Shown here: positions 1,621-58,875 of the stretch, one piece after another | Layout of the letters: each line of letters begins with the position of its first letter | How positions within the stretch are numbered: position 1 is the stretch's first letter | Assembly: GCA_003971905.1 (NCBI GenBank) | Contig: RSEE01000032.1 | Coordinates: 434,001 to 498,000, forward strand | Length of the DNA: 64,000 bases | Reading direction: 5' to 3' | Source: Moniliella sp. 'wahieum' | Lineage: Eukaryota | Translations under genes and position numbers: made by a program | Notes under the pieces: generated by a model | Seen by the model: only the letters and a program-made list of their open reading frames with translations | Databases searched by the model: none | Told to the model about the DNA's origin: nothing

Positions 1621-2962
1621 CCCTGTTGTAGTACAAACGCCAAGAACACACTCATGAGCCATTCTTCCTCTTATTGTGGTCATTACGGGACACGCTATAA
1701 TGCCGTGCTGTATAGGAAAGGCTACACAAGGCGCTTCCGTGTAAGGCCGAAGGAAAAGGCCTAAGGCCTAAGGCCACCAAGGCGGGATGATCGATGATCG
1801 ATGATACATGGTGAAATGATGCATGATGAGGCTTGAAAGACGGAGGCATCCGATGGCCCCCTTCGATGAATCATCGATCAACGACACCACTCTTTTGTGG
1901 AGGGGGCGGTGGGTGGGTTCCTGGGCTGGCTGGTGGCTGGCCACCGGCCACCCGAAGTCAAAAGCGGGCTGGACAAGACGAGACAGCTGCTGCGAAGCTC
2001 ACGGTCACATGACTTGGGGTCGACATCACATGTCACATGTCGCATATCCAATCCCATAGCGGGCCTGAGTACACCAGAGTGCCTCTGTGCCTGAGGGCGC
2101 AGTTCCACGGGTTGTGCCGTATGGTGAAACCAACACTGGCGGGGTGCCCCAGTGGCCAGGCCTTGGCCTCGTGTTTTCCACCGCCCCGTTGCTGCGACGA
2201 GTCGTCTGGCTCCGCTCGGCCTCGCCAGTCTCTGCGACTGGTCACCGGTCATCGAGGTCATCGATCATCGGTCACCAATCCTGATGGACACGTGGTGTTT
2301 GCAATGAGCTCAACCGATGATCGATGAGTGAACGTTGAATTTGAACATGTTGAGTTGAACGTTGAATTAACTGCACGTTTAACACGTTTAACACGTCGAT
2401 CGCTCATCTCAACCTCAACGGGGCCAGCGAGCATCTGCTCATCGACGTCTTCTTCCAACACTACGGCTACCGCCCCCGCCACCACTACCACCACCACCAC
2501 TTGCTTCCATCCCACCACCCGTGCCGCACGCCCACGTCAGTCGCTTCATTCTGGAGACGTAATCCCGATGAACGCTGACGCTGCGGACGACACAGATGCC
2601 GGGCTCGTGCCTGCGTCTGCTCTTTCGCCTCCGCCAGCCGAAGTCCCAGCCTTAACCTCAGCTCCAGCCTCAACCTCAACCCCAGCATTAACACCCAACA
2701 CCTCTCATACCTGCTTTAGCCCCTGTTTCCGCTTCAAATTCTGCTCCAGGCTCCCTCCCCCCCCCTCCCCCGGATTCTGCCCCCGCATCCGCGCCCCCCT
2801 CTCCCGCACCGCCCACTCAGACTCTGGCGACAGGAGATCAGACCCCTTCTTCCAGCCCACGCCTCACCGCTCGGCGCCCGCGATCCCCCTTCTTCCGCTC
2901 CCCTCGCCCCTTTACACGTCTCCATTCTGCCCAAGTCCCTGAACGGAATCCCTCCAGCTCGG

Positions 2963-5900
2963 ATGCCAACCAGAGTGCGGCCAACAGCCCACAGAGGTCT
3001 GTCTCTGTCACAGGCAACCGCCCAGCCACCAGCCATGCTCCCCATGCATTCGCCACATCATCATCGCCTTGCCCTCAGTCTCTGGGGGGGTCGTCCAGCG
3101 ACTCCCAACCCGACTCTGGTACTGCAAGCGGTCGTTCCCTTCGCCCCCGGACAGGCGAAGAGATGGATCCGACAACGGCGGCACAGATTTCACCATCCGG
3201 TCTGCGCTTCATGCGCCTTCCCAGACGGTCCGGGTGTGGATGCCGAGACGGGGGGGTATTTGATCTACACCTCAAGCGCTCCGATCCGTACGCTATTCCC
3301 ACAGACGCCGGACCTGATCGACCAGCCAGCGTCCCGCTCATTCCCTCTTTTGGTGGGTCGCGTGTGCCCTCCCCCAAAGTGTCGCGCGCGACAACTCCCA
3401 AGATACACTCCCGCACTGCAACTCCCAGGATACACTCGCGCGCTGCAACTCCCAAAACCACCCTCCGCCATCCTCCATGCCCTTGACCAATCCCGCTGAT
3501 GGCACCACCGCATGATGCCTCCCGATCTCGACCGAAAATTTTACCTCTTCTCCGGCTTCTCCTTCTCCATACACAAGCCAGCCTTGACATGCTGGGAACT
3601 TCTGCTCTACACGACCAATCTACCTCAAACCGGTATCCTTCTTCAGCACAGGAGGGGGTATACGCTCAGCTGACACTCGACTGAAGAAATTCTCGCGTGT
3701 TGTGCCTCGGCCCAAGTCGCGCAGCCGCAGCCCCCCCGCGCGGATGTCGCCGACAGCAATGTTGACCCTCAAGACTCGGCCGATTCAGATGACGAGAGCA
3801 TTGCTTCTCGAGGCGCAGCTGCCAGGTCTATGATTTCGGACTTGCGTTCGGTCGAGGCGGCCCAACTGGAGGATGACGCAAACCTCCGGCGCCTGTTTTA
3901 CTTCCCCACGCCCCCCCCCTCCACCCCACAAAAGTTGTTGCAGTCCCTTCGGGAAGATCAAACTAGGCCGACAACTCTCCTGTCGGACCTGCCCCTCCCC
4001 AACTCGAGCCCAGTTCGCCCGAAGAGCTGAACTCACATGTTGATATTCCGAGCACATCACCGCAACCCGACCCCGAGGCCGCGAAAGAGGAGGCAACGCC
4101 TATTCCCCATTTCCACAGGAGCACCAAGCAACATCTGATTCTGTTCCAACTTCCCCTTCCCCTGGGCAGGAGGTGGAGAACGCGAAGGGGGAGAACGCTG
4201 TAACCCGACGCCAACCAACAAGACTCTACACAGCTTTAGAGGAACCTTTACTCTTCGCTCCACACTCTGAGCCCTCTGGAGCTGCTGTACCCCGTGTGAG
4301 CTCGACCAGTGATGAAGCCGAGGGGCGCACGTCGAGACCGACCAGCAGTTTAGCGTCGTCGTCCTCCCGTCCTTTGGCTCATCCGGTTGCACGCCATGGG
4401 GGCTTGATCCTCAATGCTCTGAACCCACCGAGACCTGCCATTCCTCAAAGGAGTGATTCGGGGATTAGCACCCAAAGTGAGACACGGCCTACTCGACTGC
4501 TAGCGAAAGCGTCTCTGGGCGCAGTTCAATCGAGCACACTGGTCCCGATTCCCCTTCCATGTCCCGACTGGGGCAGTCGGGTACAGAATCGCCCCCCAAA
4601 TCGACCAGCTCAGGCTTGGGCGCAGGGTTGGAGAGCCTAACCCAGCGAGCTCTTCAACCACGCCCCCTACCACTGTATCCACCCTTCGCTCTTCTCATTG
4701 GAAACCACACCCCAATGTCCCCCCTCCTTTGGAAGAGAGCTCCCAGAGAAGAGAATTCGCCGCCTTGTCCGCGGACATGAATGACTCGTCCCAGGGTCCC
4801 CCCTGGGGTTGAAGTGGATCCGTCCAATACTTCTTCAACGCATTTACCTCCTGCGCTGGACGAGGAGCAGCCACATCCTACCATTGGGTCTGCTCCCGGT
4901 GGGATGGCCACTGAAGCATCCGAGGTTACGTCTTCCTCGACCAGAGCTGGCCCAGAAATCAGCGGCGTGAACCCCCCTCACTTCCCCCTGGGATGCCTCC
5001 CCTGTCGCGACATCAGTCCAAGTTCCTCCCAAGTTGTATACTCCCAAGGCCCACAATCTCCCAGTTATCCATCCTCGTGGAACGCGAATGGCGTCGGTTG
5101 GCTCCGTGGGCGAATCAATTTTATCACCCACCTTTCCCCCCGGCTCAGCGGGAGCAGGTATCTTCCCTCACTCAAACCCGCGAAGACGCTCCACGTTGGT
5201 TAGCTCTGGGACTCAGCACTCTGGTCGTCCGTCACTGTCGACGATCTGCACCGGCGATGCTGGGTTTGACGAGGAGGCCAACAAGAATGCGGAAAGGTTG
5301 CGTCGTCAACGCCGTGCCAAGACGGAATCGGAGGATCCTCAATCTCCCACCTCTCCCATCTCACCGGGCTCCTCAGCGTTCGCCACTCCGGCGTCGCAAG
5401 CCCATCCACTGAGAGTCCCAGCACACGGGTCCGATGGCCTCGCTCGCACCCGGGTGAGGCTCAGCTCTGGCACCGCCACCGGTCGTTGTTACTGCCCCGC
5501 CCACCAGTCCCTTGGCTCATCGAGCCATATAGCGGATGATCCGGCGACCATGGCCAGCCAGGGGCAGAGCCCTCATCCTCCCGTGGGGAAACTCATTGAC
5601 GAGTCTCATGCGAACTATGTACTCATGTACCACATGCTTACTGGCATTCGCATTGCCGTGTCGCGGTGTGAGGCCAAACCCAAGCGTCCGTTGACAGCTA
5701 ACGACTACCGAGCACGACACAAGTTCACCTTTGACATGTACGTTTACTTTTTCCCAGTCTACATTGTTACTGACTCTACTCTGAATCACAGTGTAGGGAA
5801 CGAATTGGCGCCCAAGTCCAACTACGACTTTCGTTTCAAGAGATTGCAGCGAGGTGTTCCGTGACTTGCGGCGCGTTTTTCACCTGGACACTGCAGACTA

Positions 5901-10403: not shown

Positions 10404-12968
10404 TGTGGTGGTGGTGGTGTGGGACTATGCTGGCATGGAGGAAGGGGTGAGGGAACAAAGAGCGAGCGTGGGCTGGTATATATATGCCTGCCCCAGCGTA
10501 CGCAGCGACAGGCGTCAGGCGCAGTCCAGCTTAACGCCGCGCACGTGCTGTGGAGTGCTGCCGACTGGTGATGATGCAATCGTATGACTCGACCGGAGGC
10601 GGCCAGGCCGAGATCTTTTGGGACGCGTTGTGCGCAGCAGAGCAGCCCAACACGGACAAGAGCAGCTGTGACACGTGACGTACCACATCACATCCGCGCG
10701 ATATGCACGTCATCGATCATCACCCATCGTGTCAGCAATCCATACTCCGCCCCAGTTAATACGTTAATGCCCGAGTGGCCGACGTCATGCCGTGCTGCGT
10801 AACGGAAAACGCCAGGAACGCGGCCCAGTTGGCCTAGCGTCTAGGCCACTGCTTGCCACTGGCTGGGCCACTGCTTGCCTCTCTCCGGCAACCCGGCCAT
10901 CTACCCCCGCACTCGCGAAGCACGATCCGTGCTGAGCTTAGACATTGAGACTAGCAGGCGCTAGGCCCGTAGAACTTGATTCCTCAAAATTTACAAGGTA
11001 CGGGGGTGCTGGCATGGCGTGTCACTAGCACTGCGTGTAATCCATGTCATCGCACTCAGGTATCCCCGGCCGAACATGGCCGGAGCCATTTTCGAAACGG
11101 AGGCGGCTATAGGGCCGAGCCTGGCCGAACACGCGGCATAATGTCAGGGCGTGGCTGAGCCTCAGCCTTCCTCAGGCCTCAGGGCCTCAGCCCCTCACAG
11201 TTTCAGCGGCTGAGCTGCGCTCGCGCTCTGCTGCGCTCAAGGTTCAAGCGGAGTTACCAGTACCAGCTGCGCGTTACGCGTTCCGCGGCATTACGCGTTA
11301 CGCTAATTTGAGTTGTCGCGGTCGCCTCGGAGGTGGGCGGAAAGGGGGAGGAGGGAGAAGAACGTGTGTCATTGTGGGTCCCAAAGAGGCATCTCCGACA
11401 ATGTACCGTTTCCGTTCTGTACAATAGAACGGAACGGGCCAGGGGGGCTGTCCTGGGATGTCGGGTGGAACGCGGGAGCAGGGATTTAACCGAGTGGCGG
11501 CTACTCAGTACTCAGTCTCAGTACTCATCGACGCCGACGTCGTGTAATACACACACTTGGCACTAAAAAGTACCATGTTGCTAGTTCTATATTGTGCCTT
11601 TTAGCCTGTACATCTCCCATCTGTGGCGTCCTCGAGCTTTCTGAGGCCTGATGCATGCCGGCTGTGTCATGATGATGCATCAGCTGCATCATCAATTAAA
11701 GATTGACTTCAAGCTTCAAGCTTCAAGCTTCCCCAGGGCGAAACAATGACCTTCTGTATTAGGACGGATACAATTAATGTGCAAAAGCCTACCTGTATTA
11801 TACAGCAAGCTGCCGTGTCTTGCAGTGCTGCATGTGCTGCGCCTAAACAGATCAGATCGATCAGAAAAAGCATGTGGCCATGCATGCATGACATGCGGCA
11901 GCACCTTATAAATGTTTCTCATCACTATAGTCACTGAATCTTGATGGGCCAAGCAAGGAATGGAGGGTTACCGGTTACTTGAAGAACGGAGAGGATGATT
12001 TTGATCTGTGTAATAGCTCTCTAAATAGAAAAAAGCATGCCGTTTTCATAGGTTAAGATGTGTCAAGAACACACACAACCATCGATGTATAGGGCTAAGA
12101 TGCACTGATAATTGCTGAATATGTGTGGACATTTTTGCGCCGTGAACGCTGCGGTAACCAAAAACTATGACTGCAATCAATCAGGTGGCCTCTCGACAGT
12201 GCGAAACAGAGGCAAAAGGCGCTGATCACGAGTACACAGGCAAAGGATGCATCGAGTAGGAGCGGTGTTGGTCGTGTGCGGAGAGGAAATGATAGGGGGG
12301 GATATTGAAGTCTTCAACACACGGGGGTACTACTTTCAGGCCTGCGGAGGAGGCAGTGATCTATAGAGCCAGCTTCGCAAAGGGTCGGTCTACGGAGATG
12401 CTGTCATGTTCATGACACTCATTACAATAATGGCAAACAAGTCGATGATATATTTATGGGTATGGTTCACCACAGGTTGACCACTCCTGTTTGGGGGGGG
12501 GCGCCCGGGTTTAATGTATAGAGATATCACCAATCCTGCCCTCGGCGGGAAAAGTGTCTCGATTTATTTGTGTTCGGCAACAGAGGCGAGATCTGAGACG
12601 TCATGCATCATGCGTCATGCAGAGATGAGATCGGGGGAATGAGACTGGGAATGGACTCTCCCCCCCGATCGGGAAACAAGGAGCCGGGCGAGAAGAGCTA
12701 TGGAGGGGGACTATGGGTTCTCAAAGAATCAAGGAAGATCCACCCAAGGAGGCAGGAGACACAGGAAGCGGGTGTGGTGGGAGGGAAGCAATAACTAGGA
12801 GAGGTTTTCTGGATTGACGAATGGTTGAGAGATGACGACAAAATCGGGACAGTGTGTAAGGATGGGGGGGTCTAAAGAGGGGAAACAGCGCAGTATAATA
12901 GACAAAAACGGGGGAAAAGGCACCAGTGGGATCGGTCAGAGGCTACCGAGATTTGTGATTCCTTCCAC

Positions 12969-13204
12969 TGTTGGCCTAGGGGAGCCGGCAGAAGGATGAG
13001 GAGAAGGTGATGGATTGGAGCCAGAGTTGGGTCTGGGTACAGAGGCATCTATATAGGAGGCTGGACTAGGCACAGGGACAGTGAGTCACACAGGAGAGAG
13101 TGCAGGGCACAGGGACAGTGACACGCAGGGACGTCAGCGTGGAAGCCGATGGAACCGAGGCGAACCTGGTCTACCGACTGGGAGCCAGAGGATCACAGTC
13201 AACA
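12969..13204 (-). repeat. LTR copy 1 (236 bp)
   Basis: TG..CA ends; differs from the other copies by small indels near 12980-12990. Confidence 0.92.
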
Positions 13205-13920: not shown

Positions 13921-14000
13921 AGTGTGCCGATTGTGGCGGTAGTATGCCGATTGTGGCGGTAGTATGCCGATTGTGGCGGTAAGGTGCCGATTGTGGCGGT
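13921..14000. repeat. 20-bp tandem repeat, 4 copies, in the retroelement internal region
   Basis: agtatgccgattgtggcggt and close variants. Confidence 0.92.
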
Positions 14001-14723: not shown

Positions 14724-14732
14724 GTTAAACTC

Positions 14733-15188: not shown

Positions 15189-15912
15189 TGCTTAGAATCG
15201 GTTTCCTCTTGTACGGTTCTAGTCTGAAACCCCACGTAATGGAAGCCAGCACACGTACTGAGATTGAATCTCTCCGGCTATCGCCTGGCTCCGCGTCACT
15301 ATCTATCTTGTCAGCGACCGTGCCAGCCTCGAATTTCGAGAGTGATGCTAGTGATGCATGATGCGTGACATGGAGTACGCGTGATGCGTGACGCGTGACG
15401 CGGCAAACTGAGCGGCGCCCCTCAAAACTCAATAAAATTTGAAAGCTGATATCTGCGAATGCTTTCAGACCGCAGGACCAATCCTGAACGTTCAGCGCCA
15501 GCGCTGAGGCTCAGGTTTCCACTGCCGATGGGATTGCAGCGCAAGCGGCCCAGTGCGTCGAAGGCTAGCCAAGCACACGCTGCCCCGGCTCTTATTAGCC
15601 GGGGCCAGGGCCTGCCAGGTGTTGATGCATGATGCATGGCTCCCGATGCATGATGCCGATGAGAAACTCTGGCCGAAACAACGTGTTTGCAGGCAGACCC
15701 GTCGCGCGTCGTGCGAGGCTGTGAGCAACTAGCTGGTCAGGTGTGACATGTGACATGCATGACAGGGAGCATGCGAGCCTCTCGTCTGAGGCTCAGGCCC
15801 GGCTGTCCCTTCGTCCTCCATCTGCATCCCCCCACCATCTCTTTTTTCCCACACAGCTCCGCTTCCCCGCGTTTCCTGCATGCGCTTGGCCCCGCTCCAC
15901 CGCTAACCGCTC

Positions 15913-17928: not shown

Positions 17929-19180
17929 CGTCCCGCGCTCTATGCAAATGGCCGGTACGTGTACTGTTTGGCTCGCGCCGTGTCGTGAGCTCAGCTGGTA
18001 CTCATTATGAGCGCTATGCTCCGTGACCTGTGGGTCTCTCTTATGGTGGGCCCGGGGCATCCTTTCGCCAAAGTGCCAAGTGTATCTGTAAATGTTCCTG
18101 CCATCTGTCTCTTTTATCCAGGACTAACTTCAAGCGGTCTTGAATCCTTGAGGCTTGAGGCTTGAGTGCTCGTCAAGTCGTCTGCAAGACTCATCAAAAT
18201 AGACACTGTTCTCCAAGACACACTAACATTGACAAACAATGCACATTGCTTTTTTTTCTCGTTCATCTATCTCGTCCTTTCTAAATTTGGTCCCCGTGTC
18301 GATGAAGAGAGCTGATGAGGTCGATGAGATCAATGAGGGGTGGAACTAGCTTGGCGCTGATAAGGAAGTTGTACTGATGTGGTATTGATGCGACGGTGCA
18401 CGACGATCCGCACCGCGGAATGAATGCGATTACAAAGAAACTCGTCAGCTCTCCTCTAATATCCGAGCAGGTGTTGGCGTTGAGGTTCGATGGAAGATCC
18501 TTCTCGGCGTGTTCATATCAAAGGGCTGGGGGATTGGGTAGCCTCCACTGTTCTAAGCCATCAAACACGCCCAAAACACTGCTGCAACCCCGTAGTGGAG
18601 GTGATGTGACGCGCAGCTTAATCTGCGGCTTGGCAAGTGACGACAGAAACACGGCCATTATGCATTACCGATTATCGACATCATCGCTCGTCAACGCGTC
18701 AAGCTTCAAGGCGACGATGATACTCCGCGAGGGAAGCATGCTCGACGTTCAGCGTTCGTTCACTGACTCTCGCGCTGCTGGTGGATCTCTTGTAGAGCCC
18801 AGAGGCTGGCGAGCTTTCTTTAGCAGCCCTGCTGGAAATTTTCCGGCGGATAGTGGGTGACCGGTGACAGTGACCGGTGATAGTGACCCAGTGATGCAAG
18901 TGATGCGCACAAAACTATCCACGCCCGCAGTATGCCACTCTCCCCGCGTGTAGCAGCGCTGGCGCTGCGTGCTGGGATACCACTGGCATGCCACATGCTT
19001 CAGAGACAGAGCCATTTGTTCATTCCAGCGGGGCCTGCCCTTTCAAATTTTTCAAACTTCACTCATTAATCCACGCGTCACCGGCCGGCCGTTCATCGCT
19101 GATTTAAATCTGCCACTACCATCTTCTGTGGCGGTTGCTACGGCCTCTGCTGCATGCCAACTTCTCGCTCGCTCCAGATA

Positions 19181-23800: not shown

Positions 23801-25533
23801 GGGTAGACGATTGTTGCAGGAAGGAAGAGAACCCAGTCCTCGAGGACAGGGAGAGCTTTGGAGAAGGGGGGGAGCAAACCTGGGAAGAGTAAAGCACCGG
23901 CTCAGTTTTCTGCCCCCTGAATATAGATCTCAGTGCACAGCCGCGTGTGTAATAGGCGAGGTACGCGGACGAGTAGAGGCTGGAATGGTGGCACGATGGC
24001 GACAGAAGTGGATCCACACGGGTATGGGATAATAGAGCGGACAAGAGGCTAAAAAGGGGGGCAGAGAGGCAATAATCACGGAGCAACCCACCACTTGGGC
24101 TAAGCGCTAACAGAAGATGGGCCAGTATACCCAGTCCTCAGCGAATGCAAGCCGAAAGGTGCGATCTGACTGGGGAGTACCTTAAGATCTCAGATCTCAG
24201 ATCTCTGGGCTTGCGTGCTTACACTTCAAGCTCGAACAAACTGGAACCTTCTTGGAAACGAGATTCGGTCACGGGCAATCCCTTCTGGTGACAGTGGGGG
24301 GGCAATGCAAGGAAACCTTTGGCTCAGATGCTGCGACTTTGACAGTTGCAACCCCAGAGCTGTTGGGGGGTTGGGATCTAGAAAAGATAGAGGACAGAGG
24401 GAGGATACGGCTCGAGAATGGTGGATGATCGATGAGGAGTTACTAGTTCAGTTTGAACGCTCAGTGTTCCAACTAGTTTCTTGGTAACGTTTTAACTTTG
24501 GGCGGTGGAGATGTGGGATGTGGGTGTGGGATGTGTGCGGTGCAGAACGGATAGCACCAGTGTGGCACCTGCTAGCAAGACCGGCCGGCACGTGGTTTGT
24601 GAGGTAAGGCCTGAGGGGCAAGTGTTTTGGAGCTAGCCAAATGGGCACCGGTGAGGGGGGACGAGGCCCGGGGAGGGGCGAGATGTGAGGCTGAGGGCCC
24701 GACGAGAGGAAGCAGGGAGGTGGGAGTGGTGGGGCGGAAGAAAAGTGTGCTGGCTACAATCGGCGCCCACCCGGGGGCTCGGAGGAAAGGCAGGCGAGAA
24801 AGAGGCACGCTGGTTACTACTAGGTACTAGAAGGCGACATGCAAGCCACAGCCCGTCGCCTGTCGGCTGCTACTGCAACGTGCTGCAGTATAGGCTGCTG
24901 TGGCTGCATATAGCAGCACGATAGGAACCAGTGCCTAGGGCCTAGTGACTAGTGACTAGTGGCTAGGACTGGTGTGGTGCTGCGATGTTATGCTACGTGC
25001 TGCGTCCTGTCATGCAAGCCTCCTCTGTTCCGACCCGCTGCTGCGGTGGCAGGGACGGCGCAGGGACAGTCTGGGACAGTCGGAGAGCTGATGCTGATGC
25101 AAGCTCGACAGGCAGCACCGTAGCTGCTGCTCACGCATGCCACATGCCACTCGCATGTTCCTGTCTGTATAAGCGCTAATCGGGTCGCTTAGGTTTTAGG
25201 GGCGCTGCAGTGGCGCTGCAAGTACGCGTTAACCGCCGTCCAACGCTCAAATTAATCCCACCAGCCCGCCCACCTTTTGTTTGGACCGGGCGTGATGCAT
25301 GATCATCGATCAACGTACTTAGCCTGATTATATAATTCTCGAGTTCCCTGGAGCGGAGTATGTACAAGAAGTTCGTAGCGAAGGCTCAGCGCTCAGGCTC
25401 AGGCGTGAAGTGCTGAGGCGCGCTGGCCCGGACCTGCTCAGGCTGCCTGCTGGACTCTGCCTGCCTGCCTGCCTTTTTCTTGCCAGGCCGCCCACCCCGA
25501 CCCACCCTGCCCACCGGCCACCGGCCACCCTCA

Positions 25534-26660
25534 CTCAGTACTCATTCGTGCCTGACTAGCTGACTAGTAACTAGTAACTAGTGCCTGGTAGTACCTGGCC
25601 CATGGGGCATGTGTCACTTCGGATTCAGAAGGGTCTAGTTCTGAGAGTATCGTATGGACATCCGATTGTCGAGATCATGGATTGCTTAGTCGAGCGCTGA
25701 TCACGATCTGCTCCGGCGATCTTCCGTCCCCTTCCGTCCCGCGTCCAACGCCCAGATCCAAGATAATCGATATCGATAATCAGAACCACGCATCATGCAT
25801 CCCGTGTCACATATCTCAGACGCAGATGGAATATGGAGCACAGTAGCCGCGGGTAGCCAGTAGCCCCAGGTACCCCTGGCACACCCTGAGCCTGACGCGT
25901 GAGACGGCTCAGAGTGCTGAGGCTGAGCCGCTCAGGCTGAGCGAGCATGCTGAAGCTGACATGTGACATGCATGTGACAGATCTGGGCATCATGCATCAT
26001 GCATCATGTGCATCATGCGTCAAACGCCACGCGCCACGCCAATCTCCATGCGACACCATGAGCAAGTGTCGCGAGGCGTGACGGGACTTAAGCTCTAAGA
26101 TCCAACATGTGTATTGGACGCGATGCAGCTGTGCTGATGCACTGATGCATGAGAGCAGCACGCAGCACACAGCTGTGACGCACGGACGCAGCCCAAACAA
26201 GGTCTTAACAACTAAGATCGGGCATAACGTCCACAACGGTGATCTGGTGATGATGATGCTTGCAAGTCCCGCCCGGATTGAAGAGTGACTAGGCTAGTGA
26301 TTCCCATTGGATGGACAGCGATTATGCAGTGATCAAATGTTAATTCACAATTCCACGCTCCACCGTCGGAGGACCGTTACGCGTACGCAACACGTTTTAA
26401 AAACGCTTAACGCTAACGTTTAGCGTTTAACGTTTAAGGTTTAACGTTTAACCCGTAGCGCTTAACGTTAAGTTTAACGCTTACCGCTTACCGCTTACCA
26501 CTGAGCCACAGCGTAACTTAACCACAGCGTAACGCGTAACCGCGGGATAACCGGTCACGCGGTAACGGGCTAACCAGCAGGCGTAACGAGTAACGCGTGA
26601 AATGCAACAAGAGGGTGTAACCGGGTAAACGCCTGTTAATTTATAGCACGTGAAGCTTGA
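25534..26660. repeat. Dense cluster of 7-bp-period TNA-[4-bp palindrome] arrays
   Basis: TGA CTAG TAA CTAG TAA CTAG (25561); TGA CATG TGA (25957); TCA TGCA TCA TGCA TCA (25990); ACGT TTA GCGT TTA ACGT TTA AGGT TTA ACGT TTA (26416); TAA CGCG TAA (26530); TGA AGCT TGA (26651). Confidence 0.85.
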
Positions 26661-32243: not shown

Positions 32244-33789
32244 TGGTAGAAAAGAAGATCTTCAAACAGAAGAGGAAACAGAATGTCAGTACTTCTCGTC
32301 TTACAAAAAGACGTCGGGCAATACGCTTCATTGAGAGAGAGGAATCTGCTAAAAAGCCCTGTAGCATGTTGCGAACAGGAGAGTACCGTAGCAGCCGCTC
32401 TCCATTGACCAAAACATCGTCCTTCTTTTTCTCTCCAGCCGCCACAATTCCGGCCTCTCTTCTTTCGCGAGAAATGGGTTGGCGGCACTCACCAGAGCCA
32501 GCACGGGATGATGGTTGGATGAGGTGGAGCGCGGGAGTAAGTCAACACGGAAAGACGATGTGGTAGTGAAGGTGAGGGCACATTCGCAGCATAGACGAAA
32601 GCAGAGGGGGCAATTAAATACGTTTGCATCTACCCCATTATGTGGCGCTACCTGTGTGGGCGCAGTTGTGGGGCAGGGTGCCCACAGGAGCCTCATTAAA
32701 TTTGCACACAGCCGATGTGCCGCCCTGTCCTCCGACCCCTACTAGTTCCGCATCGGCTCCTAGTGATATACATGTTCTCGTCCCCATCGTTATTGTGTGG
32801 AGCATATTGGAACAGAGGACACCAGACCCCTGTCCCCACGCCGAAAGGAGAACCCTCGGTCCGGTTCGGTCCGGTCCGGGTATCGGCATCAGCGCATTTT
32901 CTCTTTTTTGCCCTGCTCACATAACCAACACATCTCCTAAAGGAACCGCTCGATCGAGAGAGACATTCGTATGGTGCAAGATACTCTCCTGTTGGGTTCA
33001 GCTATATATCTTACGAGAGCTCGATCATGATATGCATGATCGCATGATCGGGCCTACGACCCGGGCTGTGCCCCGTATGTGTGTGAGAGGCTGTTGTGGT
33101 TACAGTTCCTTTGATTGCGTGTGTCTGGGGCTTCGCCCCATCAGCCTGTTTCATGAGATAGCGGCGGGGCCCATATTCTCTTTTCCTCGTTCCATTGCAG
33201 CATCAGGAATAATCTGGGCAAGCCGTGGCTGTCGATGACCATTCGGGATGAGGCCTGAGGAGGTGACAGAGGAACATGTTTTGGCGCTGAGAAAACTGAG
33301 TTATAAATGGCGAAGACTGGTTTGTGAAGGGGTGACGCAGGTGGAGAGTTTGTTGCGTATCATCGAAGGTGGACGATAGGTACAGTATGACGCAGGGCTT
33401 TTCACAGTCTCTACATCTTGTTCGGTCACAGCTGATCAATAACTCTCTATCACCTATATATCATTGTCGCAAGATGAACGGTTAGGTTTAGACGTAGCGT
33501 TCCCTGTCCCAGCCTTAAGCTCTGTCAATGAAATGGACGCATCATTGTCGAGCGCCTCTCCTTGTTTCGCTCCTTCTCTTCTCTGTGCAAAGTAATACAC
33601 CTCATATCCGTTACATGGCCACATAGATATGAGTTGATTGTGAATGACTCTTTAACGTTATGGTTCTCTGTTCTCGCAGTTTTTTCGAGTATGCGCATTG
33701 GGCTGAAGGATTGAGAGAGTGAATGAGACTCAGATGGATGAGCAACTATTTCTGTATTTAGGAAGAGTAGCAGCTGGGCTCAGCATTAC

Positions 33790-36604: not shown

Positions 36605-38011
36605 GCCTACTAGCAAAATAAGAGCCTTGTGTCAATCCCTGCATTAGGCATTTGTCTCCTAGGTACCGACGTTGGCACATGAAACACATTCAGATGATAG
36701 GACACTATTAACATCGTGTCGTTCGTTGAGCTGGGAGAGGCCGGCTGAGCCGCTGGCAACATATATTTCTAACAGTTTTCATGTGTAGTTGAGCGTATGC
36801 ATATGCTACCCCCCACTTGTAGTTGTTAGAGCAAAATGGCCAAAGAGTATTTGGACCGTTCGGTGCGCAGTGGAAAGTGATGAATGCATCAATATCAATA
36901 TACATCATCCCACTGCTTCCCCTGCGCTTTTCTTTCCTCGGTCAGGGACGCCTTATGGGGCCTTTGGTCTCGGGGTATATTAGCACCACAGGCCCCACCC
37001 TGCCCCACCTTGGCTCCGAAGGAAAACTTTTAATCGTTAAAAACCCCAACACATTCTCTTTTCCACAACAGTGGCAGCGCACACATCTCGTGTTGGGGTC
37101 CGCAGTCCAGACCCAGAGAAGGCGCGCGTGTATAACCCTGTGGATGTTGTACAAAGAATATCAAGGCCGATGCAGTGATTGGGCCACCGAGCGCACCGGG
37201 GGATCATCGGGCACTATACTTGTGGGCCATCCATCCCAAAGGCACAAATCCACACGCGAGACGCTCCTCTGCTCCACCGGCCTGGCCAGGCACCGCCGCC
37301 CTTCGCTGTCTCGGCTGGCCTTGGCGAAACGAGCGCAGCTTGGCGTCGTTTGGCGGCTGTCTGCTGCTACCCTTCGAAGTCTGAGATCTTGAAGCTTAAG
37401 CGGCTACACAGAGGGTACCGGTCTGTACCGGCTTGTACCGCCTGGCCCGCGGGACACCCTGGGTACAACGTTAAAACACCAGCGCACAGCAGGTGACATG
37501 TGACATGCGACATGCGATCTGCGACAACCGACAACCCTTGTCGCCACATATGTCACACACCATATCATACACCATTAAAGAGATCATCGATCACACCGAT
37601 CGTCTGGCAGGGATCGGCAGTGCGGCTTCTGCCATAACATGTCAAGGATTTTTGTGGCTTGTGGACACTCCGGCGGCGCCGTGTGGGACCACGTGCACGC
37701 GCCATGGAAGCGCCGCTTGCCCCACAGCAAGTCCAAACCCATAATGCATAGTGCGTAATGGATCATATGACCCATATCCGCGGTCCCGACCACCATCACC
37801 AAAAGGCAAAAGATCGTCATGCTTGGTCCATCAACACCCATATAAGCACCGTGCTGGACGCACAACCGCGGTCCTTGGCTCTCTCCACTCGCCATCCAAC
37901 AGTCGTTCTCTCTTCCTCTCGTTTTGCACCCCGCGCCACCCTTATCAACGCTCTTTTTGTCTCTCTGCCATACGATTGTGGCGGCCACCCTTTAAAGCCA
38001 CCCACCGCAAG

Positions 38012-39995: not shown

Positions 39996-41466
39996 TTTTT
40001 TTATCCATGATGTCCTTCCTCTAGCATACTATCCCGACAGCCACAACTGATCTTTGACATGCTTGGCGCGACCAGAAGATGACCTCTCTCGTCTTTCAAT
40101 GTCATGGGCACCCTCCAGAGCGTCTTCGTGGTTTTGGGCAAATATATATACCTCTCTTCGATGGCAGGGAAGATATGTGTGAAATGACGATCATAACAGG
40201 GATGCAGGAGTTGGAATCGTCGCTATCTTCTCGTTTTTTGGTGCCAGCAGCAACTGAATGAGAAGGGAGAGGGGGGAGAAAGAAGACTATGAAGAGAAAA
40301 TATATGATTCTTTTTGGAGCTAGCTCTCCATCACCGGTATCAACTCGTCCTGCAAACGACTTAGTAAGACCTCAGTACCGAGGGTGAGGGCCCGTTTGGG
40401 GGTCATCGCCCGCCATAATCAACTCATATAACACAGAAACACGTTTTGGATGCGCTCCTGAGCACGGAAAGGCCACAGCCGGCAGCTTCAGCCAACGCCA
40501 ACGGGCACACACAAGCGGGCCCAAAGCCTGCATCGCCTTCTGCTCCGGACACACCTGTGGGCTGCCTGTTACGGAGGCTGCCACACCTACCTTGTCGAAC
40601 CTATACCTCTCGAAGCCTATCAGTATTAAAAGTCGTATAGTAGATATATACTAGGATGAATACTCGTAGTTGTTGGAGGATGTATGGTCCGTCAGTCGGA
40701 TTCGCATTCCGACAGACGCAAGGCAACGATGTACTGGTCGCCCTTGCGTTGATGTAAAGTTCCCTGCTGATGTTCATCTGCTCGATGCTGAGTTGACAGC
40801 CAGAGAGTTTTTCCTCTGCTGGACGGATGGCGGATCGAGGCTTCTCCAGCTCCATTGCCTCTGTTGTGGTTGCCGTTTGCGGACAATCCTATTTGATTCT
40901 TCATACATCCATCAAAACTTCTTCTAACACGCCTGTATACAGTGTATTACTAGAAGTGCACCGCGATCGCATCCTCGTCGCATCCTCGTTCTTTATATTT
41001 CCCATGTCTTCAGAGAGAGAAAGAATTAAAGCCCGTGTCAGACTCACGCCGTGCTAGGGGCCCCTTGGCCACTAGACCCGTATGGGCACTATGGCGTGAT
41101 TATTATCAGTTGGGAGATCCTGTGTCCACCTCTCGACTGTGCCCCCTTCCTGAGGAGGTACATATACCTCCTCTGCGTCCATAGATGCAATCAATCTGCG
41201 CCCTTTCCCCCATCTCCGTATCCTGACAGCCCGTTCATCGACTGGCCTGGATGCTCACTTGTGAGCTCTCTCACTTATACATTTAGAAAGGTACAAAAGG
41301 CTCACATGGACTATAGACCGGGGGCGTTGAACGTGCTGAGCCTTCAAAAGCTTCACTTGAATGTTGAGTACGTTGATCAATCGACGTCGCTCGTTTTCTA
41401 ACGGGTGAACGCGAGAAGGGCCGCCCTGGCGCAAAACTGGGGTGTCGCTCTCGTGGAAATGCGCGG

Positions 41467-41921
41467 TAATCGATAACCGGTAACCCGTAACCGGTTATAC
41501 GCCCCTGGGTGTGGTGTGGGGTACCATCATGCATCATGCATCATGCCACACCGGTGCTATATACAACACGCGTTATACGCTCTTCCACAGAGGCGCTCTC
41601 CCGCTCCGCCCCCGTGGCTGTATGCATAATGCTGGCATTTTTCGATCACACATTATATGCGTTGGACACCACCACTACCGCCTCTCCCCTCTCGGCTTGG
41701 GACGAGGGTCCTGTGAAACCACAAATCCATCCGGGCGGCGTATCCAGCCATGGCCTTTTTCCACCGACTCGCGGAGCAGAGTAGCTCGTGTCGGGAGTGC
41801 TCCACCATGCGTATTGCTTAATCACACGTAACTAGTAACTAGTGATGCATGATGCATGGTGTACGTACGCTGAACTTTCAGTTGAAACACTATTAAATAT
41901 ATTAAAGCTTAACGTTAACGT
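41467..41921. repeat. Cluster of 7-bp-period TNA-[4-bp palindrome] arrays with mixed cores
   Basis: TAA TCGA TAA CCGG TAA CCCG TAA CCGG TTA (41467); TCA TGCA TCA TGCA TCA (41527); TAA CTAG TAA CTAG TGA TGCA TGA TGCA (41829). Confidence 0.85.
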
Positions 41922-42498
41922 GCCGCATTTGGCGCGTAATGTTTTAAGCTTGTTTCCGGCTACCCTTTCCCCATTTGCCACCCAGCGCCGCGGAGTATCT
42001 GGGCGGAGTTGGCAGATGCCTGCAGAGCCGCGCAGGTCCGGCGACGCCCGGCTCTGAGACAACAGTGTTTGGATGCAACAAAGCGTGTGACCTGTGGCAT
42101 GCGAGGCTGTGATTGGCCAGCCAAACGGCCTCCGATGGCGGTGCGGCCTGGTGCGGCCCAGTACGAAGCGTAGCCGGTCGGCCCGCAAAGGCACCCCCTG
42201 GCACCCCGCTGTCACCGATCACCGGTCACCCCCGAAGGAGTTGCTCCGACAAAGCGGCCTGCTTCGCTCCGGCAGAGCGCCCAGGAGCGAGTGGCGCACG
42301 CACTGGGCCATGCCGCAACGCTATCGCACACAGGCGCCGTGCCCTTCTTCATGCATCACGCGTCACGCTACCCCAGCCAGTCGGAGTTTGCTCCGTGTCC
42401 TGCCGCCCCGCGCTTGGAGTAGCAGACTCGTCGGCTCTGTTGTTATTTTGCGCGCTCGCTTCCACGTTTCCTCCTTTTCTCCCTCCACCTCCCCCCTT

Positions 42499-44120: not shown

Positions 44121-47003
44121 CGACACGGAGGACAGTGTGCACAGAAATGCCTCTCCCTCTTCCACCAGTCCTCACGTTCCGTTCGTTTGTGGAGACAACA
44201 CAGACCGTCAATTGAGGCACAGCGCCTTAATTGCGATCGCACCTTTCCTGTCTTTCTCCCACCTTGGGAAGAGGAATATTTTTATGACTACGGTGCTCAA
44301 CCCCCCTGAAAGCGGCCTCTCACGCCTTACCCACACGTCTCCGATCACCAAACTCTGACTCGCCTATATGCTGGGCGAAGCGCTCTATAGGGGTACTACC
44401 AAGAGCCACACTGCGTGGGCGTTCTCCGTCGTCTTTTGCCGTCGTTTATATATATTGTTCCTATCATTGGAACTCGTCTCCTCTTCATTCTGGTCTTTTC
44501 TCCCTCTTGGGGTTTACCCTACTCCCCCTGTTTTCTCTCCTATCGCCTCGACAGCCTTTCCTATTCGTTTCTCATCACCGCGGCCCCTCATCCTCTCATT
44601 TCACTGTGACGTTATTTTGTCTCTATACGCGTGGCTCTGCGCCTGAGCCATCTGTACATTTAGCTCTTCTCGTAGACGCCAGACCCCTTTTCGTGTGACC
44701 GGCGTGGATAGTCTCCACAGGGCACACCTCTCATACCATCGCAGCTCTGTAGTTTGCGTTGTCCTGGGATGGTGATCTGGATGATACTGGGATCGCTCTC
44801 TCTCTTGTCCTCGTAGGCTGTCCTGGCTCCCGGACAGAACTCTGACTGACAGATAAAAGGCTGCCAAGTCAAACATTCTTTCCCTCTACCATACCCATTT
44901 TCGAATCTGTGACAACTGGGTTGACCACATTGACTACCTCTCGAATCCTCTCTGTCGGCTTTTGGAGGAAATCGTTCTTTTACTCCGACCCACATGTATA
45001 TATTGCATCCATATCATTGACAGAGCTTAAGGCTGTGGGACAGGGAAACGCTAGGCCTAAACCGACCTGTTCATCTTGCGTTTGTTGCTTGGGTAGCGCC
45101 ACTACCCCTGTTGGGGAACCAGGGAATCACCAGGATATCAGGACCCTCTGGTGCACGCCAACCGTTCCCATACCCAAGGCAACAGCGCGTGTGGACACGG
45201 ATGAACGTGGTAGACATCCGAGCGAGGAACTATTCCCATTGAGAGAGTCAGTAGTCAAATCCTTCCAGTGTGCAAACATGGCTTGCCCGCTGTCTTGGCG
45301 CCGAAGTATCCCTTACGCATGTCTGTAAAACCACATTGAATCGAAACGCGTTCTGCCTTCGAATAGCATTTTTCTCTCTCCACATGGCAGTTACAGCAAT
45401 GCAACTATGTGTGTGACGCCGGGGGGTCACTGATATATTCCTCTGACAGATCTGACAGAGGCTAAATTTTGCTACTGTCGATTATTCACAGAATCAGATA
45501 ACTACTCCGGCACCGCGGCACCAATCGCATTGAATCTCTAAGAGGCTCTCAGCGATGAGGCATAAGGCTCGTCACGCTCATCAGTGTGGTGGTCACCTAC
45601 AATGTCAACGCAAGTGTGGCATTCTTAAATAATGTAGACCCAGTCACATGTATGTTAGAAACGCACGTGTAACATGCAGACACCGACACACTAATAGTAG
45701 GGACGAGGTATACCTCCGTATAACACACGTGCTAACTCATAGGACAGAAACCAGAATAGTGAAGACGTTGTGGGAAAAGGATGGGATGTTGTGTGGAAAA
45801 ATGAGAGTGGAAAAAAGCTAGCACGAAACTGACCACGCGTATGCGCGCGAGCAGCAGATCTCGTTGCCGTGTGCTGGACAGGGCCATAGCGAATCGTGTT
45901 CCCTCGGAAACCCCTCTCAGTCAGACAGACACCAGGGTCGCTGTAAGTAGGCCTGTCACATGTCACATGTCATCCATCATGTACCATTTTAGATTGCATC
46001 GTTATTAACCCCCATCACAGGCAGCACTGTTCTCCCGATGAGAATACTATCACAGTTGTAGCATACAGATGAACATAGATTAAGCTTTAAGTGGGATGTG
46101 TATGAAGCTGGCTTTGATGAAAGAGTATATCAGAGTGGGTGTGAACGCAAAAAAACGCTTTAATTTTGTTGTGGGTTGGAGTCGAGAGTTTTCGAGCACG
46201 TGCTTGCGTGCTGATGCGTAAAATGCCTGTCTGCACTAGAGGGTAAAGCGTCAACAAACGCGAGTAGAGAGCGAGGTCGATGATCGAGATGATTCTTGAC
46301 GCATTGATGTCCAAGTGTGGGTGGTCCGACGCATGTGAGGCTTGTAGCAACACCCTTTGTGTCTCGCTTTCTCTGGCATAGCCTCTGGAATAAAGTGCGG
46401 GGGCTGTGCTGCCGGAGTCAGAGCGCAAGGTTCATGCACATTGCTGGAGGCATGGTCCATGTTGTGTGGTCACCAAAGGAAAACTTAAGAATTGATGCCA
46501 CCACAAAAGTACTGAGAGATGCCTGTCACTCTTTGTACTTATATGTGATCTCACACGACACATTATATCTTTTACTTCGCCAAATCATATGGTGTCTAGC
46601 CTGGGGGCGGCAATCGTTGTGAGCGTTGAGCTCAGGGGGAGGGGGAAACCCGCTCAATATATGCTGCTTCGGACGAGTGAGACCGGCAAGGGAGGGTTGT
46701 TGGTGCAGCATCAGCTCTATTGCATTTCTGGGTGTGTACGTGAGCTGTGTATGGGCCAGGCGTTACTACGGATTATAATACTTGCAGACGCGTTGACATG
46801 CATGGTATTTCTCCGCACAATCCTCATTGTCCATAAACACCCGCCTTCACCTTTTTTCTTTCCAACACTTCATCCACCCGCACAGCCCCATCACCAATTC
46901 CCGCAAAGTGGCTACAGCGGTCTCCCCCATCATTCCAGCTTCCGCAGGGCCACATTTGATGGTTCGCGTCCTCTGTGCACCAACACTTGTATCATCCTCG
47001 CTC

Positions 47004-53118: not shown

Positions 53119-54722
53119 GGATCCACGCGGGGCAGGGTGGGGGGGGGGGTGATCTGGATGGGGGGAGGGGCGAGGAGAGACGCGGGGTGGGACGGCTGGT
53201 GGTGTGGTGGCGGGAGCAGGCGGGAGTGCGCGAGCAGGGGATGGGATGGGAATGCGCGCTGGGCCGCTGAGCCCACGCGCCGAACGCCTGGGTCAGCATC
53301 CACGGCGCACCTGTCGCCCAAGCAAGGCGGCGGGCACCACACAGGCGCCGTGCGGGCGTGAACCATCCACGGACACTCGCCTGGTGCGCTGTCCGAGCGC
53401 CGCGAATAATGTGCTACTTGAGAGCGTGAGGTCTGAGACTTGGAGATGAGGCTTGTTCGAAGGGGCTTGTTTTTAGTAGCAGGCCAAGATGGGTTAAGCC
53501 ATTGAGGCTTCGAGTCTTGAGGAGCTTGAAGCTTTAGGCATGGCGAGGCAGAGTTACATTTACAGGTGGCAACTGGGGGCCTTCCTCGTCACTAGCACTG
53601 GCACTAGCGCCCGGGTGACTATAGTGATGTAGTGACTAGTCAAGCTCAGCGGCTCAAGTGGCTCGTCCAGTTGACTGGTGGCTTCGTGACTACTAGCCAA
53701 GTGACAGTAGTAGTCACAGCCAAGTGACCCCTAGGAGTGGCTACATCACTGGGGAGAACACCCACGGCTAGTTCTCAGGCCGAGGCGGACGCGTTCAACT
53801 AACGTGGAAGCAACACCAATTCCGCCATTGGGCAGTTTGAGTTGTCAGATCATGATGATCGATCAGTTGTGGGGTTACCGGTTACCGGTTGCCGGTTAGT
53901 ACTTCTTAGTGTTTAGCTACTAGTAGCGAGCGAAAACGGGGAGAGGAAGGAGAAGAAGGGCAAGGAAGTAATAACAGAGGGCAGACGAAGCCATGATGTA
54001 TACTGAGGCAGTCTGAGGCTGCGGAAAGGGCGCGTGCCCAGGCCGAAGCCGTGCGCCTCAGGGTTCTGGGGCACAGCGCCCACGCGCGCGCGGCCTTCCC
54101 TTTCTGTCCTTCTCCCTCCTGTGTCGCTACCAGTACCCACTTCCTTACCGCTCCTATCGTCGGGTCTGCTACTAATTACACAGCCGAGTGGTTGCTAGTG
54201 TCAAGCTCAAGCTTCAAGCTTCAAGGAAGCTTCAAGTCCACGGCGCAACAGGGGCATGCCACTGGTATGCCGGCGGCGGGGCTTCCATCCAGGCGGAACG
54301 TGAAGCTTGAAGGCTTTGCTGGCTGTGGCGCTTATATGCGCCCATGCGTGATGGGGGTGGAAAAAGACTGAGAGCACCGCAGTCAGGCTATTTGCTATTT
54401 ATAATGCCCTTGAATTGACATCCCGCACTACTGCCCCAACAATTGGGCTTAGTGTATGTGAGTTGTGAAGCTGAGCGAGCTGAGCGCGCTGAGCACAGAC
54501 CGAGCGTGCAGCACTCGCCCAAGTAAACTTAGTAACTGGTAGCGCCATATATAACGCGCAACGAGGACCAGTGGTAGAGGTGATATAGCCTCTTCTCGAA
54601 TATAATTGCTGTCGGTCGACTGCGCTAAATAAAACTCTAGCTCCGCTTCGGTGCAAGAGCCCCACCACCACTCGCCGCCCCAAGTGGGTTTACTCCGCCC
54701 CCTCCACCACCACCTAGCGGCC

Positions 54723-57959: not shown

Positions 57960-58267
57960 TTACTGCGTCGTGATCCTGGTCCTGTTCGATGTGAACTGCA
58001 CAGGTGTGTGTGGGGGCTCGGTCAGGTAACGCAGCATTGGGCAGCCCATGGTTGAAGACGTACATGTACTTGTGATCACCTCCAGCGGGTAGCAGCAGTA
58101 AATGCGTTGATCTTCTCCTCAGGTAGAACGGCAGCAAAACCTTTGAGGAAGTCCGAGTCGTATTGCTGACGGATGGACCCGCCCTTGGCCTTAACATCGG
58201 CAATTTCCGCTTCGATGACCGAAGCCGGAGTGTCGGGCTTGAAAACAACCATGTAGGGCTTGCTCAT
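57960..58267 (-). CDS. Peptidase inhibitor I9 (POIA/PBI2-like subtilisin propeptide-type); intron 57996-58063
   Basis: MSKPYMVVFKPDTP..GGSIRQQYDSDFLKGFAAVLP..HIEQDQ..TTQ*. Confidence 0.85.
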
Positions 58268-58875
58268 AGTGAGACGTGCGCTTGAAAAGAGACGGGGAAG
58301 AATGATGGTCGTTGGTGGTTGATGGAGGAGACGAAAGCAGAGCCAGATTGAGCAGCTGTGTGCATCGCAGGCGACTCGCAGTCAAGCACCAGCTGCATCA
58401 TGCATCATGCGACCTGCCATCAGTGACTAGTGAACGATGAGCGTGTGGTCGATGAATCGTGACATCATGCAATTAACGATCGTCTTGTGGGGCTGTCCCA
58501 ATCCACGGGCGGCATCGGGTGCACACAGACCACACCTGCCTCTGAGACTTCATCTGAAGTGCATGGGACATGTGACATGTGACGAGTCAGTGACTTGCGA
58601 TGTGATCGATGGTCGATGATCGATGATCGATGATCCTGGTTCCTGAGTCGGTTCTTGAAACATGCAATTCGAACAATGGCGAGAGAGAGGAGAGGCACCA
58701 AGGCGAACTGGCGAATTGGGAGCGCACGTGACGCGCGTGACGGTACCGAGGGCGCAATCAATTCAGTAACACTGCAACCCTATGACACAAGCCTGATTAT
58801 AAACCTACTTCTTCCCATCCACCCGCCGTTGGGTTGCCCTTGCAATAACACCACTAGCCAGACCAACTGCCCAAC

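Follow-up and report, generated by a model that had tools for sequence, protein, structure and literature searches.

Flank-templated heptamer scars in intergenic DNA of Moniliella sp. 'wahieum' as candidate excision footprints of an element with a 7-bp target duplication

What process builds the short heptanucleotide arrays that recur between the genes of Moniliella sp. 'wahieum'? The sequence considered here, referred to as the window, is the whole 64,000-nucleotide stretch at positions 434,001 to 498,000 of contig RSEE01000032.1 (assembly GCA_003971905.1). A preliminary description of the window, made from the letters alone, reported intergenic arrays in which a TNA triplet alternates with a self-complementary 4-bp core at a period of 7 bp, and proposed that a repeated cut-and-rejoin process left them as scars. 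Arrays do not form the basic unit of the pattern; they are the multi-hit end of one type of small insertion, present at ~100 loci in 20 clusters, in which a 7-bp target is duplicated and the junction is templated by the flank. As a description of the window sequence this structure is close to certain. The heptamer arrays are read here, with a probability of roughly 0.6, as piled-up excision scars of a cut-and-paste DNA element that makes a 7-bp target duplication and leaves hairpins on the flanks.

Period-7 arrays and their elementary event

Expected counts throughout are from dinucleotide-preserving shuffles of the window. Perfect arrays (at least two units plus 3 bp) occur 19 times at period 7 with 0.0 expected, 10 times at period 6 with 0.2 expected, and not at all at period 8 with 0.05 expected (20 shuffles), while a unit of TNA plus a 4-bp palindrome is present in 28 of the 48 perfect period-7 runs of at least 14 bp, where about 2.7% would be expected by 7-mer counting. 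Two-unit arrays with a palindromic core number 10 against 0.00 expected and those with a non-palindromic core 2 against 0.02; for 10-mers of the form TNA-core-TNA with the same N on both sides, the counts are 82 against 2.54 (shuffle maximum 7) for palindromic cores and 70 against 40.9 for non-palindromic ones (100 shuffles in each case). The arrays claimed in the preliminary description, which had itself called for shuffled controls, other spacings and a comparison with non-palindromic cores, are thus real and stronger than reported, and the two kinds of core are not equally common. Its figure of at least 13 perfect two-unit arrays overshoots a little: 10 have an identical core, and 14 are obtained if both cores may differ.

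Chains of units that stay in phase are restricted to TNA among the 16 triplet classes XNY, with 21 homogeneous and 16 mixed-core chains against 0.08 and 1.1 expected; the other 15 classes are close to expectation or represent rotations of the TNA units. The mixed-core chains reach a maximum of 4 across 40 shuffles, and duplication of one motif cannot be their source. The 6-bp palindromes of the form A....T are also in excess (327 against 184.5), which none of the three other outer pairs shows, their counts being at expectation or lower.

Isolated units indicate which part is duplicated. TNA-palindrome-TNA occurs 52 times in isolation against 8.2 expected, and 39 times with an identical N on both sides against 2.7, while palindrome-TNA-palindrome occurs 15 times against 9.0 and has an identical palindrome in 3 cases against 0.67 (30 shuffles). 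Since the first arrangement is strongly enriched and the second barely, the event duplicates the TNA and places the palindrome between the copies. A model with the 4-bp palindrome as the target-site duplication (TSD) and TNA as the remnant of an element was rejected, as palindrome-TNA-palindrome is barely enriched and the mixed chains contradict it.

In 30 of the 39 isolated same-N units, half of the palindrome is repeated in the two bases outside one TNA, where about 5 (about 12%) would be expected by chance. Fourteen have wx recurring after the right TNA, as [TNAwx]x'w'[TNAwx]; 13 have the mirror form [x'w'TNA]wx[x'w'TNA]; 3 have both patterns and 9 have neither. The two 'new' bases of the palindrome are therefore the inverted complement of the neighbouring two bases, which makes them P-nucleotides by definition, and because the palindrome is templated by the flank any 4-bp palindrome is possible, which explains the twelve different cores. 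The commonest product is pq-TNA-wx-x'w'-TNA-wx or its mirror, a net gain of 7 bp with a new junction that forms a 4-bp palindrome between identical TNAs; the earlier geometry of TNA plus palindrome at period 7 is a sound description of this product, though not of the underlying event. The same asymmetry is seen in the period-7 runs. The unit is present in 60 of the 174 perfect runs of at least 12 nt, and the lengths of these 60 runs peak at 12 nt (16 runs) and 13 nt (16 runs). Their top phases, (0,4) and (5,2) with 9 runs each, correspond to two extra matches on a single side, and none of the unit-bearing runs is a 12-nt run with one extra match per side.

The dependence on the flank bears directly on one origin that had been put forward, a 3-bp TNA duplication like that of PIF/Harbinger or CACTA elements, with the palindrome (xy plus its reverse complement) supplied by the last 2 nt at each inverted end. 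In favour of this, TNA-palindrome-TNA with an identical N is how the commonest product reads, in 39 isolated cases against 2.7. Both superfamilies make 3-bp duplications according to the accessible text of PMC12730594, which fits this model, and their TNA/TWA duplications share with the window a central T-N-A at the target. The palindromes, however, come from the flank and not from element ends, as the 30 of 39 units with half of the palindrome outside one TNA indicate; the duplicated stretch is 5-7 bp, and the products of +8 and +9 described below duplicate full 7-mers. Twelve cores would also need twelve terminal dinucleotides, and no such element was found within the window. This origin is barely tenable.

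Scars are located in promoter-like intergenic DNA, with none in recognisable coding segments. No same-N unit (0 of 82) lies within the 13 Pfam-supported open reading frame (ORF) segments (8,309 nt), where 10.6 would be expected. The earlier statement that none lie inside coding sequences is borne out to that extent only, the test being confined to Pfam-supported segments because classing by ORF length is too noisy in GC-rich sequence. Two related metagenome contigs (33 kb in total) have 0 same-N units, but these are distant relatives, taken from a metagenome scan with the MFS ORF at 42% and 35% identity.

A promoter-like location would also suit a selected cis-regulatory or structural grammar, made of sites for dimeric factors, stop codons in all frames (TGA/TAA on either strand every 7 bp) or hairpin terminators. 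TNA does yield TGA or TAA on one or the other strand, and known fungal motifs such as ACGCGT are among the A-palindrome-T hexamers created here. A grammar of this kind is very improbable given twelve unrelated cores and a free central N; partial products of 12 nt, and a core that depends on whichever two bases lie beside the site, are features of a mutational process rather than of a binding site, and the pattern is not present in the two related contigs.

The duplicated target and the minor products

The minor products, with net gains of 8, 9, 11 and 13 bp, reveal the full length of the duplication. Directly repeated TNA-centred 7-mers (nnTNAnn) occur 27 times at period 7 against 0.23 expected, 3 times at period 8 against 0.07, 17 times at period 9 against 0.2, and twice each at periods 11 (against 0.17) and 13 (against 0.07). 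At period 8 all three have a 1-nt P spacer, and at period 9 the 2-nt spacer matches exactly, in 13 of 17, the inverted complement of the end of the left 7-mer or of the start of the right one. One product of period 11, TGTGACA-TG+CA-TGTGACA, has P-nucleotides from both sides, and one of period 13, GATAATC-GAT+ATC-GATAATC, has 3 nt of them from both sides. For comparison, 7-mers that are not TNA-centred have an exact P spacer at period 9 in 7 of 41 cases, of which 6 are rotations of the same arrays. Across the products the junction consists of 1-3 nucleotides complementary, in inverted order, to the flank beside them, in the manner of P-nucleotides. Many +9 products have 7-mers with non-complementary outer pairs (GGTCATC-GA-GGTCATC), which shows that the 7-mer was pre-existing and did not arise from formation of the palindrome. 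A 5-bp TSD, TNAwx, with 2 P-nucleotides was rejected as asymmetric, and because the +9 class shows a 7-bp duplication.

When products of an even hairpin are counted by assumed TSD, 78 are found for 7 bp against 4.3 expected and 47 for 6 bp against 16.6; the 9 for 8 bp (0.87 expected) and 11 for 9 bp (0.17 expected) correspond to the +8 and +9 products. The ancestral site was reconstructed from 35 isolated single events among the 82 units, on both strands, in which just one side bears the repeat and no additional unit is present. The consensus is S-R-T-N-A-Y-S and is symmetric about N: S at -3 in 24/35, R at -2 in 28/35, T at -1, A at +1, Y at +2 in 24/35, and S at +3 in 31/35, with the central N free (C 13, G 11, A 6, T 5). 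The preference for S at +3 explains the absence of the four all-AT cores.

Ordinary replication slippage of heptanucleotide microsatellites, with near-palindromic units favoured because the slipped strands fold into hairpins, would also give a period of 7. The arrays do reach 4.7 units, some run into non-TNA variants (CGA-CATG, CCA-CCGG) as if the target were ignored in copying, and slippage probably helps arrays to grow when two units are already in place. As the source of the pattern it is nevertheless improbable. Most loci are not arrays but 12-13-nt structures of 5 directly repeated and 2 inverted-complement bases, and run boundaries fall in two fixed phases rather than in the arbitrary phase that slippage would leave; mixed-core chains (16 against 1.1) and products of +8, +9, +11 and +13 with P spacers cannot be produced in this way, and palindromic microsatellites of period 6 or 8 are not in excess. 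The cyanobacterial short tandemly repeated repetitive (STRR) heptanucleotide repeats are similar in their 7-bp period and intergenic position, but such bacterial repeats are long arrays or hairpins of one non-palindromic unit, while the window has mostly 1-3 units, many cores, and flank-templated junctions.

Origin of the scars and comparison with described elements

On the preferred reading, excision of a cut-and-paste element, the element would insert via a 7-bp staggered cut. Upon excision the transposase would leave each flank capped by a covalently closed hairpin whose closure lies exactly at the element boundary (an even hairpin). Host nucleases would then open each hairpin by a nick 2 nt away from the tip, and the self-complementary 3' overhangs of 4 nt that result would be wxx'w' and q'p'pq. 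End joining of pqTNAwx / pqTNAwx with full overlap of the overhangs would give pqTNA-[4 bp]-TNAwx, a net +7, and mismatch resolution would fix one of the two palindromes; that either may be fixed agrees with mirror classes of equal frequency (14 and 13). If one overhang were kept along with the whole of the other copy, the product would be +9; if both overhangs were kept, +11; and hairpins opened at 3 nt on both sides would give +13. The resulting scar, x'w'-TNA-wx, would be a perfectly symmetric copy of the preferred target and could be hit again, producing period-7 arrays, possibly with help from slippage, and hits at neighbouring sites would produce the in-phase chains with different cores. 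The scars are probably without designed function; each adds ~7 bp and creates A-[4-bp palindrome]-T hexamers in regulatory DNA. The other candidate of the preliminary description, hairpin opening with P-nucleotide repair that recurs at the same sites, is a good fit, so that its cut-and-rejoin proposal survives in this part and fails for the 3-bp TSD. Fold-back or template-switch repair without a covalent hairpin was rejected, as priming would need a loop of zero length. Staggered-cut fill-in by topoisomerase II or Spo11 gives a duplication of +4 or +2 and no palindrome, and this model was dropped.

Hairpins on the flanks are left by hAT, Transib, RAG, and MULE transposases; host enzymes open them and non-homologous end joining then joins the flanks with footprints, according to the text available for PMC5499845. 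In haploid yeast, all 128 of the 128 Ds excision sites described in the accessible part of PMC5873905 have short deletions or palindromic P-nucleotide insertions, with two footprints predominant. As far as these portions of the two sources go, the scars in the window resemble the footprints of hAT (Ac/Ds, Hermes), the MULE Muta1, and Transib in that both target copies are retained with flank-templated P-nucleotides, and in having a few predominant junction types with rarer variants from hairpin opening and end joining (PMC5499845, PMC5873905). The general marks of such footprints are present in the window: both copies of a duplication of fixed length, P-nucleotide junctions, and a symmetric target centred on the duplication. 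The differences are the 7-bp TSD with the SRTNAYS consensus, the density of ~100 scars per 64 kb stacked in tandem arrays, and an element unseen in the window. Elements of the hAT superfamily have an 8-bp TSD (nTnnnnAn or nnnTAnnn), MULEs one of 8-10 bp, and Transib one of 5 bp. RAG, Transib, and Muta1 nick exactly at the boundary, with 5-bp or 8-10-bp duplications.

The 8-bp TSD of hAT elements is not the one indicated here, with 78 even-type products for a TSD of 7 bp against 9 for 8 bp. The hAT footprints are also centred on the complement of the element-adjacent base, in the available text of PMC5873905, while the palindromes in the window are even and centred between bases. The odd pattern is not enriched (3 against 4.6 for a TSD of 7 bp) and the even-hairpin pattern is (78 against 4.3), which places the chemistry closer to RAG, Transib, and Muta1 than to classical hAT. 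Odd palindromes of the hAT type centred on N were rejected as well, as they need pre-existing palindromes and are not enriched. None of the families named in the preliminary description (PIF/Harbinger, CACTA, hAT, RAG) is confirmed as the agent. The coding joints made by RAG in V(D)J recombination likewise have an even hairpin exactly at the boundary, off-centre opening that gives palindromic additions of 1-3 nt, and variable trimming, and the window's spectrum of +7, +8, +9, +11, and +13 mirrors their diversity. V(D)J recombination, however, proceeds without target-site duplication and is somatic, locus-specific, and vertebrate, while the changes in the window are germline, genome-wide, and fungal. 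The hAT7 elements of rust fungi (Kojima 2025, PMC12730594) have 7-bp TSDs, are of hairpin type, and belong to Basidiomycota, and are the only such described families found. The accessible text of that source, which gives neither their target consensus nor their footprints, reports them in Pucciniales and not in the lineage suggested for the window, and the odd footprint of hAT type is not that of the window.

Several observations weigh against an excised element as the writer of the scars. A search of the window for TNA-centred 7-bp direct repeats 40-8000 bp apart with inverted ends matching in at least 10/14 gave 1 candidate, inside a scar tract; inverted- and direct-repeat searches of the 64 kb gave no family resembling miniature inverted-repeat transposable elements, and no transposase family in Pfam was matched among its 282 ORFs of at least 90 aa. 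The canonical hAT scar is not enriched, as stated above, and a 7-bp TSD together with even hairpins is, to our knowledge, described for no superfamily. Some arrays extend by units that have CGA or CCA where TNA would stand (37502-37536, 25136, 25511); the T is therefore not always required for array growth, and slippage may contribute. In a comparison of rice genomes, 94 excisions included just 8 that were 'perfect', and most of the 94 had deletions or filler, in the text available for PMC4423477; ~100 scars in 64 kb with uniform junctions are far beyond these rice excisions (PMC4423477).

The accuracy of the assembly is a further point on the same side. The conserved motifs of a PIP5K gene at 5790-6970 sit successively in three reading frames with no space for introns, which indicates either assembly indel errors or a decaying gene copy. 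With the PIP5K of Ustilago loliicola as a tblastn query, 5244-6860 is covered at 39% identity. As the MFS gene also requires at least one frame change, the assembly probably has indel errors, or some genes decay, and the frame changes within a conserved kinase gene leave the base-level accuracy of the assembly uncertain. These same frame changes are what an artefact of sequencing, basecalling, or assembly of unpolished long reads could draw on. That the whole pattern is of this origin is hardly credible: random indels degrade such structures rather than build them, and the scars have an exact internal logic of direct and inverted templating with a symmetric target, and several length classes of product, and they keep to non-coding DNA, with 0 of the 82 units inside Pfam-supported segments. 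We know of no basecalling error mode that yields such a pattern.

The same chemistry may instead have come from a host-retained (domesticated) hairpin-forming transposase or an extinct element family, the scars then recording endogenous or past promoter-directed cutting. About 100 scars with no element in 64 kb, concentrated in promoter-like intervals, are consistent with this, and in Kluyveromyces lactis domesticated hAT- and MULE-type transposases (Kat1, alpha3) make hairpin-capped breaks. It is unlikely, since a direct 7-bp duplication comes most simply from integration and a cut-only nuclease would not duplicate the site; no such protein is encoded in the window. It is possible, if doubtful, that the scars are written by an undescribed element or enzyme. 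This would be a transposase that cuts SRTNAYS targets with a 7-bp stagger and forms an exactly even hairpin on the flank, traits that no named superfamily combines; it may be retained by the host, and its repeated hits on its own symmetric scars would continuously give rise to palindromic heptamer arrays in promoters.

Scar clusters, their surroundings and what they imply

The units form 20 groups, chiefly in intervals upstream of at least one gene by a rough assignment. Table 1 gives the positions of the main clusters, together with the units located in the preliminary description, each of which reads as claimed there. An interval of ~1.4 kb at 39623-41029, non-coding-like and lying around and downstream of a tRNA-Val gene, is scar-free, unlike promoter-like intervals of similar size.

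Table 1. Scar clusters in the window, with the units of the preliminary description that read as claimed (xn, number of repeated units)
Positions	Setting and size	Scars	Units located earlier
1756..2396	14 indexed units	arrays TAA-GGCC x2.9, TGA-TCGA x2.9, TCA-CATG x2.9; +9 product GGTCATC-GA-GGTCATC at 2247; period-9 array 2374-2396	1756-1775 TAA-GGCC; 1788 TGA-TCGA; 2026 TCA-CATG; 2242 TCA-CCGG; 2329 TGA-ACGT
10710..12621		TCA-TCGA (10710), CCTCAGG x2 (11170), TTA-CGCG, TCA-GTAC, TCA-AGCT x3.6 (11707-11731); +9 product GATCAGA-TC-GATCAGA (11850); TCA-TGCA (12601)	11270-11303 TTA-CGCG; 11505 TCA-GTAC; 11709 TCA-AGCT; 12601 T[CG]A-TGCA
15341..15760	upstream of MFS transporter gene	+9 AGTGATG-CT-AGTGATG; arrays TGA-TGCA, TGA-CGCG, TGA-CATG; mixed chain CTAG-TGA-TGCA-TGA	15623 T[CG]A-TGCA
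18147..19057		CTTGAGG x2.9 (TNA-centred 7-mer duplicated, junction not palindromic), TTA-TGCA, TCA-AGCT, TGA-CCGG x2; +9 products AGTGATG-CA-AGTGATG and TTTCAAA-TT-TTTCAAA	18858 TGA-CCGG
24101..28322	largest scar field, 29 indexed units	arrays TCA-GATC, TGA-CTAG, TAA-CTAG, TCA-TGCA, TTA-ACGT; P from both sides in TGTGACA-TGCA-TGTGACA (+11, 25962) and GATAATC-GATATC-GATAATC (+13, 25762); degenerate TTA/TAA + ACGT/GCGC/CGCG tract 26402-26567	24183 TCA-GATC; 24942 and 25561 CTAG; 25386 TCA-GCGC; 25990 T[CG]A-TGCA
31420..31529	two isolated scars	+9 CGTCACC-CG-CGTCACC; TAA-TCGA-TAA-TC	
33026..33265		+8 product CATGATC-G-CATGATC; single scar TGA-GGCC-TGA-GG	
37493..37600		TGA-CATG array extending as CGA-CATG, CGA-CAAC units (growth without T); TCA-TCGA-TCA	
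41464..42372	upstream of dual-specificity phosphatase gene	TAA-TCGA-TAA-CCGG-TAA; TCA-TGCA x3.1; 8-element mixed chain TAA-CTAG-TAA-CTAG-TGA-TGCA-TGA-TGCA (41829-41856); TCA-TGCA-TCA-CGCG-TCA	41527 T[CG]A-TGCA
45442..46096		+9 TCTGACA-GA-TCTGACA; TCA-CATG x2.7; TTA-AGCT-TTA-AG	45956 TCA-CATG
53523..54495	between divergent C2H2 zinc-finger (-) and MBOAT_2 (+) genes	TTA-CCGG x2.6, TCA-AGCT x2.7, TGA-AGCT; GCTGAGC +9 products	53875 TTA-CCGG; 54207 TCA-AGCT
58394..58895	upstream of uS19 ribosomal protein gene	TCA-TGCA x2.4, TGA-CTAG, TGA-CATG x2.4; TGA-TCGA x4.7 (58603-58635); +9 CGTGACG-CG-CGTGACG; CATG-TGA-GTAC-TGA	58603-58635 TGA-TCGA

The window is eukaryotic and densely packed with genes, with a GC content of 0.50-0.65. 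A Pfam scan of its 282 stop-to-stop ORFs of at least 90 aa matched the Ctr copper transporter, PIP5K, MFS_1, EF-hand, protein kinase, MMR_HSR1 GTPase, GH5 (weak), DSPc, C2H2 zinc finger, MBOAT_2, ribosomal uS19, 21-kDa complex I subunit, and WD40 families. The best named relatives are in Ustilaginomycotina, at 40-45% identity: Ceraceosorus guamensis for the MFS protein, and Ustilago loliicola and Malassezia yamatoensis for PIP5K. These matches suggest a basidiomycete near Ustilaginomycotina with no close counterpart among named genomes. One Logan protein is 83% identical to the MFS protein of the window. The 651-codon open frame at 47270-49222 matches no Pfam family and has no homologue among the 8000 candidates scored.

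Other repeats and tRNA genes are also present. An LTR (long terminal repeat)-like repeat at 12968-14980 and 15084-15190 begins with TGTTGG and finishes with CCTACA; its copies at 12987-13338 and 14145-14496 are identical across 352 nt with ~800 bp between them, two more partial tandem copies lie at 14497-14959, and it adjoins a minus-strand tRNA-like sequence corresponding to the 3' half of the tRNA-Val gene (39900-39995). The repeat has the appearance of a degenerate LTR retroelement that inserted next to a tRNA gene. A 94-nt tRNA at 33790-33883 (Rfam 48 bits), for which ARAGORN gives a four-base anticodon, gcaa, and assigns no type, probably contains an intron. The long GCTTGA hexamer or 42-bp repeat at 52232-52554 (~34 units) lies in a minus-strand open frame of 687 codons, upstream of the C2H2 zinc-finger domain, and is probably a coding low-complexity repeat. 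In-frame coding repeats of 15/30 nt and 24 nt are found at 1490-1652 and 114-208, one proline-rich and extensin-like and the other Met/His-rich beside the Ctr copper transporter, and 19 consecutive G are found at 31305-31323.

A full-text search of the literature, with subscription journals outside its coverage, turned up no account of TNA-centred heptamer scars, nor of genome-wide P-nucleotide footprints from any fungus. Footprints of excision are familiar as a feature; what would be new is the saturation of promoters with a uniform, self-reinforcing type of scar that seeds heptamer arrays, from a type of element that matches no described superfamily. If the reading as excision scars is true, the genome would be a dense, self-documenting record of transposon excision in which each scar reports, without an experiment, which site was targeted, where the hairpin was opened, and how the ends were joined. 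Excision scars would then make up a measurable share of promoter DNA, given ~100 events, each adding 7 bp or more, within some 15-20 kb of non-coding sequence, and by recreating the preferred target they would seed tandem repeats, a mechanism for the birth of microsatellites of odd period. The scars would point to a type of transposon, with a 7-bp TSD and an even hairpin, that has no match among described superfamilies, and flank-templated junctions would provide a simple sequence test applicable to any genome. If an undescribed transposase is indeed responsible, microsatellites and regulatory hexamers would arise de novo by a route that the transposase drives, and the scars could be read as a natural record of thousands of hairpin-opening events.

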